Shown: positions 2,875-10,338 of the stretch, piece by piece
Layout of the letters: each line of letters starts with the position of its first letter
Position numbering within the stretch: the first letter of the stretch is position 1
DNA from: an uncultured Helicobacteraceae bacterium
Lineage (GTDB): Bacteria > Campylobacterota > Campylobacteria > Campylobacterales > UBA6016
Assembly (NCBI GenBank): GCA_937973585.1
Contig: CALJKN010000192.1
Span: 28,733-92,732, forward strand
Direction: 5' to 3'
DNA: 64,000 nt
Notes under the pieces: generated by a model
Databases searched by the model: none
Told to the model about the DNA's origin: nothing
What the model saw: only the letters and a program-made list of their open reading frames with translations
Made by a program: the position numbers and the translations under genes

Positions 2875-3696
2875 TTATAGTTTTGTATAAATTGACGACT
2901 TGAGAAGTCCGAATTCGTGCTTATTTTCGGTTATGGCCTCCGAATCACCGATAACCAACAACCCACCTTTGTCAAGTAGTTTTGCGTACCTGCTGATTAA
3001 CGCTTTTTTTGTCGGATTATCAAAATAAATCATAACGTTTCGGCAAAAAATAATGTCAAATTTGTTTTTAAAAATCGTAAAATCACCCGTCACGAGATTA
3101 AAACTTCTAAAAACAATATCGGACTTTAGCTCGTCTTTGACGGCGTACTGTAACCCATTGGCTGTTCTATGTTTGTCAAAATATTTTTGCAGCTGTGTAG
3201 ATGAAATACCGGATATATCCTTTTCGGCATACTCTCCCCTGACCCCTTTTGACATGGCTTTATGTGAAATATCGGTAGCAAGTATCTTGATATCTCTTTG
3301 TGAGAAATCTTTTAGGTTATCCCTCAAAAACATAGAAATAGTATACGGCTCTTCGCCGCTAGAACAAGCTGCCGACCAGATCCTGATTTTTTGTTTTTTA
3401 CCGAATATCTTCTCCATATTCTCTTTTAAATACTGCCACTGCTGCGGGGAGCGAAAAAAAGAGGTGACATTTGTGGAGATTGCGTTTATAAAATCTATAA
3501 ACTCATCCTCTCCCTCTTTAGAATTTAAAAAACGGTAATACTCACTAAAAGTCTTAAAGCCGAAATGTTTTAATCTTTTGTGTAGTCTACCCTTTACCAT
3601 TACCGATTTTTGTTCGGATAGGGCAATCCCTACCCTCTTGTAAACAAATGAACGGATTTTTTCAAACTCTTCGTTTGTTATCTCTATGTCAAGCAT
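2875..3696 (-). CDS. cheR: Chemotaxis protein methyltransferase CheR
   Basis: 273 aa. N-terminal helical CheR domain plus SAM-MTase motifs (IWSAACSSGEEPYT, IFCRNVMIYF). Confidence 0.9.
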   Translation of the reverse strand: MLDIEITNEEFEKIRSFVYKRVGIALSEQKSVMVKGRLHKRLKHFGFKTFSEYYRFLNSKEGEDEFIDFINAISTNVTSFFRSPQQWQYLKENMEKIFGKKQKIRIWSAACSSGEEPYTISMFLRDNLKDFSQRDIKILATDISHKAMSKGVRGEYAEKDISGISSTQLQKYFDKHRTANGLQYAVKDELKSDIVFRSFNLVTGDFTIFKNKFDIIFCRNVMIYFDNPTKKALISRYAKLLDKGGLLVIGDSEAITENKHEFGLLKSSIYTKL

Positions 3697-3699
3697 TAA

Positions 3700-5832
3700 T
3701 TATTTGTCCGACTCGGAGCATAGCCCGTCAATATTCAAAATCAAGGCTATATCGCCGTTGCCCAAAATCGCCCCGCCGGATATCTCACGTATTTTTGCCA
3801 TAGAGCGTCCGAGGCTTTTGATAACAACCTGTTGGCGACCAAGTAAGGCATCTACCAAAATAGCAAATCTACCACGCTCAGAATCTACGCATACAAGTGT
3901 GCTCTCCCAAATTTGTGGCCTGTGCGGAGTTTTTACGTCAAGTGCCTCATCTAATCTAATAACCGGAATCTGCTCCCCTCTTAGGTTTACAAACTCACCA
4001 CGCCCTTTTAACATATGGACTATCTCTTTTTGCGGGACAAACGACTCTACTACGCTAAGCGTTGGGATGATGAACGTCTCAGCACCGCTTTTAACCAACA
4101 TTCCATCAATAATTGCAAGCGTGAGCGGCAATATGATAGAAAAAGTACTACCGTAGCCTATTTCGCTGTCTATCTCAACTTTGCCCCGTAGCTTTTCTAT
4201 AGATGTCTTAACAACGTCAAGGCCGACACCTCTGCCGGATATATCACTAATTGTTTTTGCAGTGGAAAAACCGGGTTGCATGATAAGCGAGAATATCTGC
4301 TGGTCGGTCAGGGTGTCGTTTGGATCGACAAGACCTCTTTCTATCCCTTTTTTTAAGACCGCTTCCTTGTCGATACCCCTACCGTCGTCGGAGATTGCGA
4401 TAATAATATTTCCGCTTTTATGAAACGCTCTCAGGGATATCGTCCCATCTCTCTCTTTCCCTTTTGCTTCCCTCTCATCATTGCTATCCTCTAGCCCGTG
4501 GTCGATAGCATTTCGTATCATATGTACGATAGGATCAGATAGGGAGTCGATCATTGTTTTATCAATCTCTGTCTCTTCACCCTGAATAACCAATTTGATA
4601 TCTTTGCCGGTTTTTTTGGCCGTATCTCTGGCCACCCGTTTCATCTTCTCAAATGTATCCCTGATAGCAACCATCCTAAGAGACATAACTCTGTCTTGAA
4701 TCGTCTTCGTGATTTTAGAGAGCGTCTCTATCGTTTTGTTTATATTTGAGTCACCAAGATCTTTTATCTTTTCATTCTGAGCGATAAAGTTCTGGGCGAT
4801 AACAAGCTCCCCTACGGTGTCGAAAAGCTCATCCAGTTTTGCCGTGTCAATTTTGATATACGACTTTTGGGCTGACTCCTCTTTTTTTACAACTGAAGAT
4901 GTCTGTTGTTTGCTCTCAGGTAGTTTACTTGCCTGCTCCTGCTCTTCAATCTTTTTTGGTGCATCGCCTTGTGGTTTTATCTCCTCTTTTACTGCGGCTA
5001 TTTCTGCCGCTTTTGCCTCTATTGCCCTTATTGCATATTCGTGCTCGAATAAAAATTCAAAAATCTCAGATATCTCAGCCTCCGGCTTCTCAGAAGCGAG
5101 AAGAACAGATACTAATGGAAGATATGAGTCCTCGGCTGCAAATTCCGAGAGTTTCGGGACGTGCTCCATGTCCCAATATGTATGGAGTATATCGCCGACA
5201 TCGGATAGCATCTTCAAAAATACGATATGGTCATAGCCTCTAAAATATATATCTTTGTCAAATATAAAATCTACCGCATATAGAGTTTTGCCGTCTATAT
5301 GGTATTTTTGCCCATCAGCCGATATCTTTTGCTTTATCCTCTGGGCACACTCTAGTCCGCTCGAATCTTCGCCAATTTGAACTTCGTTGGCGCTAAATTC
5401 AGATGCTAAATCTTTTAGCGGCGGTTCGTCTTTTGTAGCCTTGGCACTTCCGCCGTCAAGTAAAGCGATAATGGCAGACAGACACTCGTCATAGTTTTCC
5501 GGTAGTCCGTCCGATTCGGCAACCTCGTAATTTAACGTCTCTTTTATTACGTCTACCGATTTTAGCAACGTATCAACGGCTGATTCCGGAACTACGGCAC
5601 CGGGGCTTCTATAGTTATCTAGCAAATCCTCAAAATGATGGACAAAGCCGCCGAGTCTGGTAAACCCAAACGCATTGGCATTCCCTTTTAGGGTATGAAC
5701 ACCACGAAAAAGCTCATTGATTAGCTCTTTATTTCCTGTATCAGACTCAAAATCCACAATATCGGCATCGAGTTTTTCGATAATCTCGGAGGCCTCTTCG
5801 ATGAATATATTTTTTAACTGCTCTTTATTCAT
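3700..5832 (-). CDS. cheA: Chemotaxis histidine kinase CheA
   Basis: HPt (FRGVHTLKGNANAFGF), dimerisation region, HATPase boxes (HMIRNAIDHG, DDGRGID, GRGVGLDVV) and a C-terminal CheW-like domain. I prefer ATG 5832 (MNKEQLKNIF) to the track start 5871, which would overlap the upstream gene by 47 nt. Confidence 0.9.
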   Translation of the reverse strand: MNKEQLKNIFIEEASEIIEKLDADIVDFESDTGNKELINELFRGVHTLKGNANAFGFTRLGGFVHHFEDLLDNYRSPGAVVPESAVDTLLKSVDVIKETLNYEVAESDGLPENYDECLSAIIALLDGGSAKATKDEPPLKDLASEFSANEVQIGEDSSGLECAQRIKQKISADGQKYHIDGKTLYAVDFIFDKDIYFRGYDHIVFLKMLSDVGDILHTYWDMEHVPKLSEFAAEDSYLPLVSVLLASEKPEAEISEIFEFLFEHEYAIRAIEAKAAEIAAVKEEIKPQGDAPKKIEEQEQASKLPESKQQTSSVVKKEESAQKSYIKIDTAKLDELFDTVGELVIAQNFIAQNEKIKDLGDSNINKTIETLSKITKTIQDRVMSLRMVAIRDTFEKMKRVARDTAKKTGKDIKLVIQGEETEIDKTMIDSLSDPIVHMIRNAIDHGLEDSNDEREAKGKERDGTISLRAFHKSGNIIIAISDDGRGIDKEAVLKKGIERGLVDPNDTLTDQQIFSLIMQPGFSTAKTISDISGRGVGLDVVKTSIEKLRGKVEIDSEIGYGSTFSIILPLTLAIIDGMLVKSGAETFIIPTLSVVESFVPQKEIVHMLKGRGEFVNLRGEQIPVIRLDEALDVKTPHRPQIWESTLVCVDSERGRFAILVDALLGRQQVVIKSLGRSMAKIREISGGAILGNGDIALILNIDGLCSESDK

Positions 5833-6094
5833 GGCATATCCATTCAGCTTTTCCGAGTTTTTTAAAATCAAATCCTCCGCCGTCTATAAACGGTATCTTG
5901 ATGTTGGATTTTGTTTTTTTGAGACTCACCAAAAAAGCGATAAGGGCTGACGACAGGGGCATCTCATCGTCGCCGCCCTCAAAACCGACCTCTTCTATAT
6001 ATTCAAGACGAGGCAGAACAAACTTTTTTAGCTCATCGATATCTGCCTGCGTCATATCTAACGATATGTTTAGTCTATCACCGTCTATTTGCAT
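5825..6094 (-). CDS. Small STAS-like (anti-sigma-antagonist fold) protein
   Basis: 89 aa. The beta-alpha pattern and the segment DDEMPLSSALIAFLVSLKK align by eye with the SpoIIAA-type fMDSSGLGvil helix start. Its stop overlaps the cheA ATG by 8 nt (ATGAATAA), and its start lies 2 nt after the MCP-1 stop. Confidence 0.5.
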   Translation of the reverse strand: MQIDGDRLNISLDMTQADIDELKKFVLPRLEYIEEVGFEGGDDEMPLSSALIAFLVSLKKTKSNIKIPFIDGGGFDFKKLGKAEWICHE

Positions 6095-6096
6095 AT

Positions 6097-6963
6097 TTAA
6101 AACTCTTTCAAATCGCTTTCATCTAACGGAAATATCTCATCCGCATCTTTTCTGCCTTGTGCAGGTTTTGCTTTTGCCGTTACGACAGGTCTATGTGATA
6201 CCTGTCTTATCTCTTTTTTTATAGGAGAAGATTGTTTGCTTACAGACTTCGGTGCTGAGTGTGGGTGATGTGAATCAACATCAATCCCGACTATTTTAGC
6301 AAGAGCCGCTACGGCTTCCAAGGCCGCTACGGCTTGTGCATTAAGCTCTTCCGATGCTGCTGCTGCCTCTTCCGAGTTTGCCGCTACCTGTTGGGTTACC
6401 TGATCTATCTGACCCATTGCGCTGTTTAGCTGTGTTAAACCCTCGGTTTGTTCTCTGCTTGACATTGCAACTTCGCCGATTAGGTCTGATACTTTTTTTG
6501 CTTTGTCTTCGATGTCTCTAAACGAGTTACTGGCTAGATTGGCTATCTCTGAACCTTTTTTGATTTGACCTACAGCTTCTTCGATGACTACGGCCGTCTC
6601 TTTTGCACTATTAGCCGCTCTTTGTGCAAGGTTTCTAACCTCATCGGCAACAACCGCAAATCCTAGTCCGTGCTCCCCTGCCCTTGCTGCCTCCACTGCT
6701 GCGTTTAGCGCTAGTAGGTTTACTTGAAATGCTATCTGGTCTATTGTTTTTACTATGTTTGCTATTTTTGCAGCCGATTCGGTAACCTCTTGCATAGAAC
6801 CTACAAGCTCTTCACCTTTGCTTAGACCCTCTTTTGCCGCTTTGTTTGCCTCTTTTGCCAATATATCTGCCTGTCTGGCGTTTTCAGTATTAGATGTAAC
6901 GCTAGCCGTAGTCTCTTCGAGGGTAGCACTAACCTCTTCAACGCTACTTGCCTGCTCTGATGC
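6097..6963 (-). repeat. Copy A of an 867-bp direct repeat (3' part of MCP-1)
   Basis: Block-by-block comparison by eye with 7788-8654 (offset 1691) found no mismatch. Identity starts exactly at the stop codon and ends at 6963. Confidence 0.85.
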
Positions 6964-7755
6964 ACCTTGCGCCAAAGAGGTAGAACTAGATGCTACCTGA
7001 TCGGCGGCAGAGGTGATTTGTAATGCACCTTCGTTTATAGTGGTGACCGCTTCTGTGATTGAGCGTGTTACGGAGCGGATGATGAGGGCGGCCAAGATAA
7101 TAGATATGACTATAACTACCGAAGCCGATACGCCTACAGAGTTTCTGGATGAAGATGCTTCCCCATAGGCCGTATCCACAACCTCTTTTATTTTTGACTC
7201 TCTTCTGTCAAGTAGTTTATTGAGCGCTGAACCCATTGCATCTGACACCGGTATCATATGCGATACCTCTGCTTTATATGTCACGAAAAGCTCTTTTTGT
7301 ATATTTGGATCTTTATTCTCTGATAATTTTTTTATCACAGAATCTATTTGAGCATATTCGCTTCTCCAAGCTTTATACTTTTCGGTAAAATCTGCAAAAT
7401 CTTTTTTGCCGTTCTCTGTTGCAATTAAACTTTCATATGTTTTCATATGCTTTTCGAAAATAGACCACGATTTTTCTCTCTGATCTAAAACTTTAGCAAA
7501 TGAGGCTTGTGCATTATAATTTAACTCATGCTCATAGACGGAAAGTGTTTGCGCCCTGATAACAAGTCTCTCCCTGTCCATTTTTAGTGCGGCGGTACTC
7601 TGAACAACTTCTTTTTTACCAATACCTTCAACATCTTCTATCCACCCGTTAGCGCCAGAAAATCCTTTGTAGGACAAAAAAGCTATCCCCGCCAACATAA
7701 AAACGGTAAGTAACATTAGCTTGGTTCTTAAAACCATATTATCTAGCCAACCCAT
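6097..7755 (-). CDS. Methyl-accepting chemotaxis protein (MCP-1)
   Basis: 552 aa. TM1, a roughly 170-aa periplasmic helical sensor, TM2, and a signalling domain with the hairpin motif [23 protein letters not shown]. Long tail ending [14 protein letters not shown]. Confidence 0.9.
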
Positions 7756-7787
7756 AGAAATTCCCCCCTCTTCTTGCGCTTATTTTC

Positions 7788-8654
7788 TTAAAACTCTTTC
7801 AAATCGCTTTCATCTAACGGAAATATCTCATCCGCATCTTTTCTGCCTTGTGCAGGTTTTGCTTTTGCCGTTACGACAGGTCTATGTGATACCTGTCTTA
7901 TCTCTTTTTTTATAGGAGAAGATTGTTTGCTTACAGACTTCGGTGCTGAGTGTGGGTGATGTGAATCAACATCAATCCCGACTATTTTAGCAAGAGCCGC
8001 TACGGCTTCCAAGGCCGCTACGGCTTGTGCATTAAGCTCTTCCGATGCTGCTGCTGCCTCTTCCGAGTTTGCCGCTACCTGTTGGGTTACCTGATCTATC
8101 TGACCCATTGCGCTGTTTAGCTGTGTTAAACCCTCGGTTTGTTCTCTGCTTGACATTGCAACTTCGCCGATTAGGTCTGATACTTTTTTTGCTTTGTCTT
8201 CGATGTCTCTAAACGAGTTACTGGCTAGATTGGCTATCTCTGAACCTTTTTTGATTTGACCTACAGCTTCTTCGATGACTACGGCCGTCTCTTTTGCACT
8301 ATTAGCCGCTCTTTGTGCAAGGTTTCTAACCTCATCGGCAACAACCGCAAATCCTAGTCCGTGCTCCCCTGCCCTTGCTGCCTCCACTGCTGCGTTTAGC
8401 GCTAGTAGGTTTACTTGAAATGCTATCTGGTCTATTGTTTTTACTATGTTTGCTATTTTTGCAGCCGATTCGGTAACCTCTTGCATAGAACCTACAAGCT
8501 CTTCACCTTTGCTTAGACCCTCTTTTGCCGCTTTGTTTGCCTCTTTTGCCAATATATCTGCCTGTCTGGCGTTTTCAGTATTAGATGTAACGCTAGCCGT
8601 AGTCTCTTCGAGGGTAGCACTAACCTCTTCAACGCTACTTGCCTGCTCTGATGC
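7788..8654 (-). repeat. Copy B of the 867-bp direct repeat (3' part of MCP-2)
   Basis: See copy A. The first mismatch is 8655 (c) versus 6964 (a). Confidence 0.85.
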
Positions 8655-9449
8655 CCCTTGTGCCAAAGAGGTAGAGCTAGATGCAACTTGGTCTGCGGCA
8701 GATGTTATTTGCAAAGCACCCTCATTGATTGTGGTGACTGCTTCTGTTATTGAGCGGGTTACGGAGCGGATTATTAGGATGGAGAGCGAAACACCTATAA
8801 AAAGAGCCGTCAACACTACGACAATAGAGATATTTCTATACTCGCCGGAATCGCTTATTGCTTGCGAAACCATTGTCTCTGCACCTTTTTTGCTAATATC
8901 TAACATAACGGTAATCTCTTTAAAGCCGGCCTCTCTTACGGGGCGCATTTTTTCTATCATCGGCGTTATGCGTAAAAATAACTCCGATACTACCTTTTGG
9001 TCGTTTTCTTTAGAGATAGGCTCCAAGGCAGATGCAACAAGCTCGTCATTTAGTTTTTTCCATTCGGCGTATATTTTTTTAAATTCTTGCCAACTTTTCT
9101 CCTCCTCAGGGGTTCTCGGCAAAGGTTCGTATGTTTTCCACCCTTTTTCGATAGTCTCAAATCCGGCTTTGAATTTTGCTATAGAGTCAAGCATTTTACT
9201 TTTGTAGTCTGAATCACCGGCAAGACCTCGCACCCTATTGGCTTGAACGGCTACCTGATACACACCGTCTTTGATTGTATAAAGACCGTCAAGAGAGGGG
9301 AGATTATTTTTACCTATCTCCGTAGTCTGCATCGCCCATTTATCGACTCCGCTATAGACTATCGCACCTAACACCAAAAAACCAATAACCATCACTAACG
9401 TCAAAAGCACCAACTTGCTTTTCAAAACCATATTATCAAGCCAACCCAC
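7788..9449 (-). CDS. Methyl-accepting chemotaxis protein (MCP-2), GTG start
   Basis: 553 aa. Same topology as MCP-1. The C-terminal ~328 aa are identical to MCP-1 while the periplasmic sensor is unrelated in sequence. GGGGAA RBS lies upstream of GTG 9449. Confidence 0.9.
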
Positions 9450-9460
9450 CGTTTCCCCTT

Positions 9461-9952
9461 TTAGTTTTTACTCATCATATCAAGAGCCGACAACTCTTCG
9501 GCTTCAAATAGTTTTTCAAGATCCAAGATCATAACAACCGTCTCGCCAACTCTAGCCATATTTTTTATAAAGTCGATGTTGATGTTTGTCCCAAACCTCG
9601 GCGGTTCAGATATGTTCGCATCATCGATAGAGAGTACCTCTTCGACCTTATCGACTATAAAGCCGATACTAATTTTGTCTATTTCTACAATGATTATCGC
9701 AGTTTGCTCGTCATACTCAATATGCGGCATATCAAACCTAAGTCTTGTATCGATAACCGGAATAATCGAACCTCTTAGGTTTATAACGCCCACCACGTAT
9801 GCGGGTGTTTTAGGTACGGCAGTTGTTTTCATAATGGCTATTATCTCTTTAACCTGAGAGATATCGATCCCGTATTCCTCTTCCCCTAAAAAAAATGTCA
9901 AAAATTTATTTTTGGAGGCTTTTATGTGTGATTTTTCGCTCTCTTTCATCAT
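9461..9952 (-). CDS. cheW: Chemotaxis coupling protein CheW
   Basis: 163 aa. CheW pattern [18 protein letters not shown]...[13 protein letters not shown]. Its ATG overlaps the cheY stop (TAATG). Confidence 0.9.
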
Positions 9953-10338
9953 TAAATCCCTAAAACCATCTTGATGGATTTTACAAGTTTCTCATCGCTA
10001 AAAGGTTTAACCATCCATCCGGTCACTCCAATATCCTTGCCCATTTGCTTCATATCCGCCGAACTCTCGGTGGTTAAAATGAGTATCGGCTTTTGCTTGA
10101 ATCTGGCATCGTTTTTAATCTCTCTAGCAAGATCCAACCCGTTCATCTGGGGCATATTTATATCCGATATCAGCAGATCGAAGCTCTCGGCTCCGCTTTT
10201 TAAATTGGACAACAACTCCTCCGGATTTAAATACGTCTTAAACTCAACAACTCCAGAAGCTGCAAGCTCCTCCACAGCCATCTGCGCCGTTGCGAGAATG
10301 GTTTTTGAGTCGTCTACGAGTATTACTTTTTTAGCCAC
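9952..10338 (-). CDS. cheY: CheY-like single-domain response regulator
   Basis: Receiver residues are present: DD (ILVDDS), phospho-Asp (LISDINMP), T (LTTES), K (VKPF). I place the start at GTG 10338, preceded by GGAGG at 5-nt spacing. The longer track ORF (to 10476) would overlap the upstream transporter gene. Confidence 0.85.
   Translation of the reverse strand: MAKKVILVDDSKTILATAQMAVEELAASGVVEFKTYLNPEELLSNLKSGAESFDLLISDINMPQMNGLDLAREIKNDARFKQKPILILTTESSADMKQMGKDIGVTGWMVKPFSDEKLVKSIKMVLGI

Follow-up and report, generated by a model that had tools for sequence, protein, structure and literature searches.

The Tandem Receptor Genes

The 64,000 nucleotides of DNA analysed here (the window; contig CALJKN010000192.1 of an uncultured Helicobacteraceae bacterium) carry a complete che operon on the reverse strand, and within it two genes for methyl-accepting chemotaxis proteins (MCPs), mcpB and mcpA, lie directly one after the other. 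The proteins combine different sensor domains with the same cytoplasmic module. This is probably an ancient tandem pair in which the DNA encoding the module has been homogenised repeatedly by gene conversion, and in which a short stretch next to the second transmembrane segment (TM2), here called zone 2, escaped conversion in the window, belongs to a sensor allele named B1, and is held constant in protein sequence by purifying selection.

The open reading frame of mcpB (7788-9449, reverse strand) starts with GTG and encodes an MCP of 553 amino acids with a B-type four-helix-bundle (4HB) sensor, while that of mcpA (6097-7755, reverse strand) encodes 552 amino acids and carries an A-type 4HB sensor. 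Gene callers place the start of mcpB differently elsewhere, giving products of 547 or 554 amino acids. A spacer of 32 nucleotides with a G-rich ribosome-binding site (7756-7787, reverse strand) separates the mcpB stop codon from the mcpA start, and this tandem junction recurs in independent assemblies and samples. Both products match the MCP cytoplasmic domain MCPsignal (PF00015) above the gathering score (Pfam E-values 2.3e-43 for mcpB and 2.2e-43 for mcpA). Both also match 4HB_MCP_1 (PF12729; 3.6e-14 and 6.8e-07), and mcpB in addition matches TarH (2.4e-10). The 4HB_MCP_1 domain is situated between two hydrophobic segments, found at residues ~7-36 and ~204-231 in mcpB and at ~8-27 and ~204-233 in mcpA, as is usual for the ligand-binding domain of an MCP.

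The receptors are thus built like Tar and Tsr of Escherichia coli, with a first transmembrane segment (TM1), a periplasmic four-helix bundle, TM2 and a cytoplasmic methylation and signalling hairpin, and the module aligns to positions 254-536 of the Tar model. They differ from Tar and Tsr in ending with DLKEF rather than NWETF, and in that no HAMP domain was matched by Pfam at E<=0.01 between TM2 and the methylation helix of either receptor. The distance from TM2 to the methylation-helix motif is only ~41 residues in both. This candidate motif of 16 residues resembles the methylation helix of Tar when the two are compared by eye.

Three Zones of Divergence

An in-register comparison of the two genes (offset 1691) divides them into three zones. 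Zone 1 comprises 6097-6963 in mcpA and 7788-8654 in mcpB (both reverse strand), and contains the last 288 codons and the stop codon, encoding the signalling hairpin, the methylation helices and the C-terminal tail. The copies display 0 mismatches in 867 bp. Identity sets in with the first base of the stop codon, and beyond it, from 6096 and 7787 onwards, the flanks are unrelated. No third copy of the module is present within the window. Zone 2 consists of 41 codons, beginning where TM2 reaches the cytoplasm (LIIRSVTRS...) and ending at the glycine close to GASEQ, at 6964-7086 in mcpA, where the haplotype is designated hapA1, and at 8655-8777 in mcpB (both reverse strand). The mcpB copy encodes the same peptide with 20 nucleotide differences, of which 19 fall within 6964-7081 and one at 7084 (Leu CTC/CTA). 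All are synonymous and at third codon positions. The initial annotation had described both zones; its count for zone 2 agrees with ours except that it stopped short of position 7084.

The third zone consists of the sensor cassettes, each encoding the N-terminus, TM1, the periplasmic bundle and TM2 in the case of the A-type (7087-7755, reverse strand), which is 99-100% conserved among strains of the same species. The B-type cassette of the window (8778-9449, reverse strand) represents allele B1; allele B2, found in other strains of the species, has 83% amino acid identity to it. The DNA of the two genes cannot be aligned upstream of 7086, as first reported, identity being 22-45% per 60-nucleotide bin. 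The sensor domains are still not unrelated, as had been suggested from the same comparison: both belong to 4HB_MCP_1, and a BLASTP alignment of the N-terminal halves of A and B gives 27% identity (E=4e-22). The short N-terminus noted earlier as common to both proteins (MGWLDNMVL+xKL) was recovered, as 31 of 35 nucleotides are identical between 7720-7754 in mcpA and 9414-9448 in mcpB. The latter conserved coding segment (reverse strand, 12 residues) forms the left edge of the block in which B1 and B2 diverge.

The differences are not evenly spread along the shared region; an even spread would have spoken against the initial annotation. All 20 lie at one end. The probability that they would all fall within the final 123 sites out of 990 is 8e-19, and that of finding them all at third positions is 3e-10. 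A mismatch-free fragment of at least 867 bp was obtained in 0 of 200,000 permutations (P<5e-6). Chance is excluded as the source of the clustering.

The similarity of signalling domains in chemoreceptor paralogues is usually credited to selection. The PctA, PctB and PctC receptors of Pseudomonas aeruginosa have signalling domains that are more than 96% identical and sensors that are less than 56% identical, and are explained by duplication followed by subfunctionalisation of the sensors, with the signalling domain under strict selection (PMC6974571). Zone 2 shows that such selection also acts on the pair described here. A Nei-Gojobori count gives 20 synonymous and 0 nonsynonymous differences at S=33.5 synonymous sites (pS=0.60, dS ~1.2), in agreement with the purifying selection already proposed for the TM2-proximal stretch. 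Selection on the protein cannot, however, erase synonymous differences; by itself it leaves synonymous sites differing, as in zone 2 (pS 0.60-0.70), and can therefore not yield zone 1, where there are 0 differences over ~199 synonymous sites in 288 codons directly adjoining a stretch with a pS of 0.60. Purifying selection as the sole cause is for this reason scarcely tenable, being refuted for zone 1 unless the identity there is wholly an assembly artefact. The two zones provide an internal control within one gene pair: zone 2 displays what selection alone leaves behind, the same protein with near-saturated synonymous sites, and zone 1 what recombination leaves behind, the same DNA. While the conservation of PctA, PctB and PctC has been attributed to purifying selection, the identity at synonymous sites points to homogenisation by recombination in the window pair, and the usual account is set aside for zone 1.

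Constraint on Zone 2

The conservation of the zone-2 peptide is also seen in other species. Counted from TM2, module codons 29-57 (29 residues), a stretch resembling the first methylation helix, hardly vary among the related species examined: three of these have one substitution each. Codons 1-28 contain ~5 variable positions. Since the codons are this close to invariant in relatives, purifying selection suffices for zone 2, and the identity of its peptide fits selection on the membrane-proximal part and the methylation helix.

Over the 57 codons the haplotypes hapA and hapB differ at 27 third positions with 0 amino acid changes. The same codons display 23-30 third-position differences and 4-7 amino acid changes between the window and the closer species, and the most distant loci have 9-13 amino acid changes. 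The species-distinguishing residues R8, E12, T25, and A28 are shared by hapA and hapB. Set against 4-7 changes, the count of 0 has a P of roughly 0.01-0.05, and a real estimate of any extra constraint is barred by saturation.

Tract End-Points Differ between Strains

The species is represented by ten further contigs, and end-points and polymorphism of the identical tract were scored in 9 assemblies. Three different 5' end-points of the identity between A and B were found. In the window and L023 it lies at 6963. In L021, L027, L028, L029, and L030 the identity continues to 7080, leaving only CTC ATC versus CTA ATA, and in L001 and L024 it stops at 6915, so that 57 codons contain 33 differences, all of them synonymous and including a serine encoded by TCA or AGC. 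The mcpB copy of L001 and L024 has 10 nucleotide differences from A in 8607-8651, again all synonymous, and the tract in these strains is therefore 48 bp shorter. The end-points are nested, and the flanks of the strains are 99-100% identical. The comparison of related strains proposed in the initial annotation thus reveals that the tract end is polymorphic among near-identical strains.

Between 6097 and 6915 the 9 assemblies contain 37 polymorphic sites arranged in 7 haplotypes, and 0 of the 37 sites differ between A and B of one assembly.

A third synonymous haplotype of zone 2 is present in mcpA. Five third-position sites within 19 nucleotides (7036-7054) separate the window from all other B1-type strains, and the codons concerned (ACT, GCT, GTT, ACT, and ATT) all end in T. 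This 'T patch' is a recombination patch and not the result of point mutations. It also occurs in L031. A third paralogue was considered as donor of the odd zone-2 haplotypes and rejected: among 5.8 billion proteins only the A and B clusters match the module at more than 90% identity, the next match having 83%, the window contains no third copy, and the T patch is an allelic haplotype found among strains.

Contig L031 (RRZT012108359.1, reverse strand, 3248-4927) contains a single mcp gene, in which a B2 sensor is joined to an A-type zone 2 with the T patch, and orf89, the gene that otherwise follows mcpA, comes directly after it. The initial annotation had predicted that a 1.69-kb deletion across the repeat would fuse the two genes. 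L031 has the expected single fused gene, and is either this deletion form or a shortcut taken by the assembler.

Two Alleles of the B-Type Sensor

The species contains two alleles of mcpB. B1 is found in the window, L023, and L001, and B2 in L021 and L027-L031, while L024 is a B2/B1 mosaic. The sensors of B1 and B2 are 83% identical in amino acid sequence, with a dN of 0.14 and a saturated pS of 0.79-0.82. The density of third-position differences continues unbroken from codon ~21 through TM2 and on into zone 2, ending at codon 265 (8655-9390 in the window). Only 2 third-position differences are found in codons 1-20. In the B2 strains the identity of A and B reaches to within 6 nucleotides of the edge of TM2, and both zone-2 copies match hapA1. 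Zone 2 is accordingly absent in B2 strains and not general to the locus. The continuity of the divergence indicates that zone 2 forms the 3' tail of the B1 allele, a deeply diverged block that reaches into the module at a place where the protein is conserved.

The strains that carry the alleles are otherwise nearly the same. In L021 and L027-L030 cheY, cheW, the mcpA sensor, orf89, cheA, and cheR are 99-100% identical to those of the window, and divergence is confined to mcpB. That these strains might form a sister clade was considered and rejected, as the flanks are too similar and only the mcpB sensor block differs. Two origins of the B1 block are both compatible with the data: it may have been resident in the species as an old polymorphism, or recombination may have transferred it from strain to strain.

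If the block was moved, the boundary at 6963/8654 might have been set by import of an allele: a B1 cassette from another lineage would have entered an already homogenised backbone, its right-hand junction falling 41 codons inside the module (57 in L001 and L024), and zone 2 would then be donor DNA. Such an event would leave flanks that are 99-100% identical around a stretch of mcpB, codons ~21-265, that is synonymously saturated between strains. It is also consistent with the mosaic in L024, with left-hand junctions between B1 and B2 that differ between L021 and L029, and with the circulation of the T patch as a third zone-2 haplotype among strains. The species-specific module residues in zone 2 of B1 argue against a distant species as donor, and the junction requires near-identity downstream, so that the module of the donor must already have been homogenised with this gene pool. 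Import moreover leaves the module identity in other species unexplained, and it is complementary to gene conversion rather than exclusive of it. We consider import as the origin of the boundary a real possibility, although it falls short of an even chance.

No donor lineage outside the species came to light when metagenome contigs were searched for any DNA that encodes the zone-2 peptide, whatever its third positions: two contigs matched, both from the same species.

Two deeply diverged B alleles in near-identical strains point to strain-to-strain differences in sensing. A more speculative and rather improbable extension is that the locus is an exchange site for sensor cassettes. The first ~20 codons and the 1-kb module would then act as recombination anchors by which ligand-binding cassettes are swapped between strains or gene slots, B1 and B2 would be kept in a near-clonal population by balancing or niche-specific selection, and the exact amino acid identity of zone 2 would come from selection for interchangeable cassettes, over and above the usual constraint.

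Concerted Evolution in Other Species

Other species (L002, L033, L034, and L035) also have a tandem mcp pair at this position of the operon. A-type sensors are 48-60% identical in amino acid sequence between species and B-type sensors 34-39%, while A and B sensors have 22-31% identity in any comparison, including that within every single genome. The modules behave differently. Within a genome they are 100% identical in amino acid sequence in the window, L033, and L035, 90% in L034 and 89% in L002, while between species identity is 74-87%. In the identity matrices the sensors hence cluster by type and the modules by genome, which implies that the duplication predates these species and that the modules have undergone concerted evolution. 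In the converted part, and there only, paralogues are closer within a genome than orthologues are between genomes, and synonymous sites are homogenised inside the tract (0 differences in 867 nucleotides) and abruptly diverged outside it (pS 0.60). This bears out the proposal in the initial annotation of a recent conversion tract with a sharp 5' boundary overlying an older duplication. The closest modules in the genome collection, which does not include the source genome itself, are 83-90% identical and come from metagenome-assembled genomes of uncultured Campylobacterales.

The extent of homogenisation varies between species. In L035, a 2.19-Mb contig, A and B are identical over 998 nucleotides, and in L033 they are identical over 990 nucleotides except for one synonymous difference 18 nucleotides from the stop codon. 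The L002 pair has differences over the length of the module, synonymous in 60 codons and nonsynonymous in 39, and is an example of what an unconverted pair looks like. The pair in L034 was compared at the protein level only (0.90), as an indel breaks the in-register nucleotide comparison.

A single recent event, either a one-off replacement of the module or a partial duplication, would be compatible with one strain seen alone, with its one sharp boundary and 0 differences in 867 bp. It is very unlikely in view of the three nested end-points in near-identical strains, the seven tract haplotypes that are each common to both copies, and the within-genome identity in three species whose modules have diverged from each other to different degrees.

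The order of the sensors differs between species. It is cheW-A-B-orf89 in L033 (4001-7308), L034 (4001-7313), and L035 (4327-7653), and cheW-B-A-orf89 in the species of the window (6097-9449), which implies a rearrangement within the tandem array. In L003, from yet another species, 5311-8647 contains two complete tandem A-type mcp genes with 100% identity from end to end, the result either of duplication of the whole gene or of a loop in the assembly.

Probable Gene Conversion and Possible Assembly Effects

Gene conversion between the copies, the probable explanation, would proceed as follows. The two chemoreceptor genes, lying together in the complete che operon, form an ancient tandem pair; their four-helix-bundle sensor cassettes have diverged to 27% identity, each being orthologous to the A- or B-type sensors of other Campylobacterales. 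Between the cytoplasmic side of TM2 and the stop codon, the 3' ~1 kb would repeatedly have been homogenised by non-reciprocal homologous recombination between the copies. As homology ends at TM2 and at the stop codon, tracts cannot extend further. In the strain of the window the latest tract would have ended 41 codons short of TM2, and the unconverted codons would be part of the B1 allele, their peptide held identical by strong purifying selection. In the lineage of the window, conversion of 8607-8651 probably went from A to B. After homogenisation, CheA, CheW, CheR, CheB, and CheD would meet with the same signalling and adaptation module in both receptors.

Several points weigh against this scheme, the first of them connected with assembly. 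Nearly all the assemblies are short-read graph assemblies, the recovered contigs of the same species being SPAdes-style. The absence of discordant sites between A and B at 37 tract positions in 9 assemblies is also what would be expected from collapse of the repeat, and a looped repeat in short-read contigs can emerge as two copies of one graph edge. The differences that do survive lie within one k-mer of the edges of homology, the sole places that an assembler cannot collapse. The exactness of the 867-bp identity is thus inseparable from assembler behaviour, and a few isolated mismatches could be hidden. In addition, as outlined above, the boundary at 6963/8654 may go back to import of the B1 block by recombination between strains, rather than to conversion from A to B. 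Finally, zone 2 is somewhat cleaner at the protein level than expected; this is a weak objection, treated here as a residual.

In its strongest form the assembly argument holds that the genes are real and near-identical, and that the exact identity and the sharp boundary were produced by repeat collapse in a de Bruijn graph, with bubbles popped and the loop edge traversed twice. The contigs of the same species carry SPAdes NODE names, and several of them begin exactly 55 nucleotides inside the end of the repeat, as would be the case when a k=55 graph breaks. The concordance of the copies at all 37 polymorphic sites and the fact that the retained differences (zone 2, the extension in L001 and the edge differences) are all contiguous with the fork fit the same explanation. 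Many related contigs break inside the module, which also confirms the assembly hazard pointed out in the initial annotation. Reasoning from how assemblers work, however, collapse would hide only sparse, isolated mismatches and could not create the contrast with the adjoining 16% divergence, and the differing end-points of the strains are contiguous with the fork and hence not collapsible. The 2.19-Mb contig of another species has 998 nucleotides of identity, and in L002 and L034 the diverged pairs came through assembly uncollapsed. The same phenomenon is moreover found in finished genomes of Campylobacter jejuni (PMC9769880). A partial artefact of this kind is regarded as a real possibility, but as less likely than not.

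Module pairs that are otherwise identical differ only 3-18 nucleotides from the ends of the homology block (L033 at 5611 and 7290; the B2 strains at 7081 and 7084). Such differences may reflect an edge effect of conversion, or they may mark the sole positions that an assembler cannot collapse.

Practical consequences follow from the 867-bp direct repeat as such: it breaks short-read assemblies, it is collapsible by them, and recombination across it can delete 1.69 kb and fuse both genes.

Related Systems

Gene conversion is known to keep bacterial paralogues such as tufA/tufB and the rRNA operons identical in any one genome even as they diverge from species to species, the tracts ending where homology ends. 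The window pair differs from these in being homogenised in one half of the gene only, while the other half is free to diverge and even shows a deep allelic dimorphism.

The closest parallel is found in the same phylum. The group A transducer-like proteins Tlp2, Tlp3, and Tlp4 of C. jejuni have identical signalling domains and sensors that are ~30% identical, and the tree of the signalling domains follows the species tree while that of the sensors shows old duplications (PMC9769880). The DNA encoding the C-terminal part of the Tlps is a substrate for homologous recombination and is thought to mediate inversions (PMC6433261). Like these receptors, the window pair consists of Campylobacterota paralogues with identical signalling domains and sensors of about the same divergence (27% identity). 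It appears to work like the Tlp2/3/4 group without being a member of it, as the sensors of the latter are of the dCache_1 type and those of the window pair of the 4HB_MCP_1 type. The Tlp genes are furthermore dispersed and bound invertible segments, while the genes of the window pair are adjacent, in direct orientation, and inside the che operon. The locus is thus ordinary in kind, its pattern being known from Campylobacter already, and does not represent a new kind of system. What is new is the recognition of zone 2 as the tail of the B1 allele, the internal control given by synonymous sites, and the tract end-points at the population level. Neither tract boundaries nor a synonymous-only zone are described for Tlp2/3/4 in the two studies cited (PMC9769880; PMC6433261).

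The Surrounding Operon

The operon is complete and has the order cheY-cheW-mcpB-mcpA-orf89-cheA-cheR-HK-cheD-cheB, all on the reverse strand, so that the receptor genes are associated with cheA, cheW, cheR, and cheB. Upstream of the pair are a cheY-like gene (9952-10338; Pfam Response_reg, 128 amino acids according to gene calls in relatives) and cheW (9461-9952; Pfam CheW 1.5e-40). Downstream, Pfam matches identify cheA (3700-5871), cheR (2875-3696), cheD (1480-1947), and cheB (437-1474). A soluble histidine kinase with HisKA and HATPase_c domains (HK; 1966-2853) is encoded between cheR and cheD, and is kept in relatives.

Between the last mcp gene and cheA lies orf89 (5825-6094, reverse strand), which encodes a conserved protein of 89 amino acids not assigned to a family. 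The gene is always found in this position, overlaps the start of cheA by 47 nucleotides and is conserved in six other species. Pfam, NCBIfam and the PDB sequences gave no match for the protein, and a single-sequence AlphaFold model (pLDDT 46.6) was too poor to be used.

The C-terminal tail of the receptors that ends in DLKEF (11 residues; 6100-6130 in mcpA and 7791-7821 in mcpB) is kept in all relatives down to ~75% module identity. By analogy with NWETF it may be a candidate tether motif.

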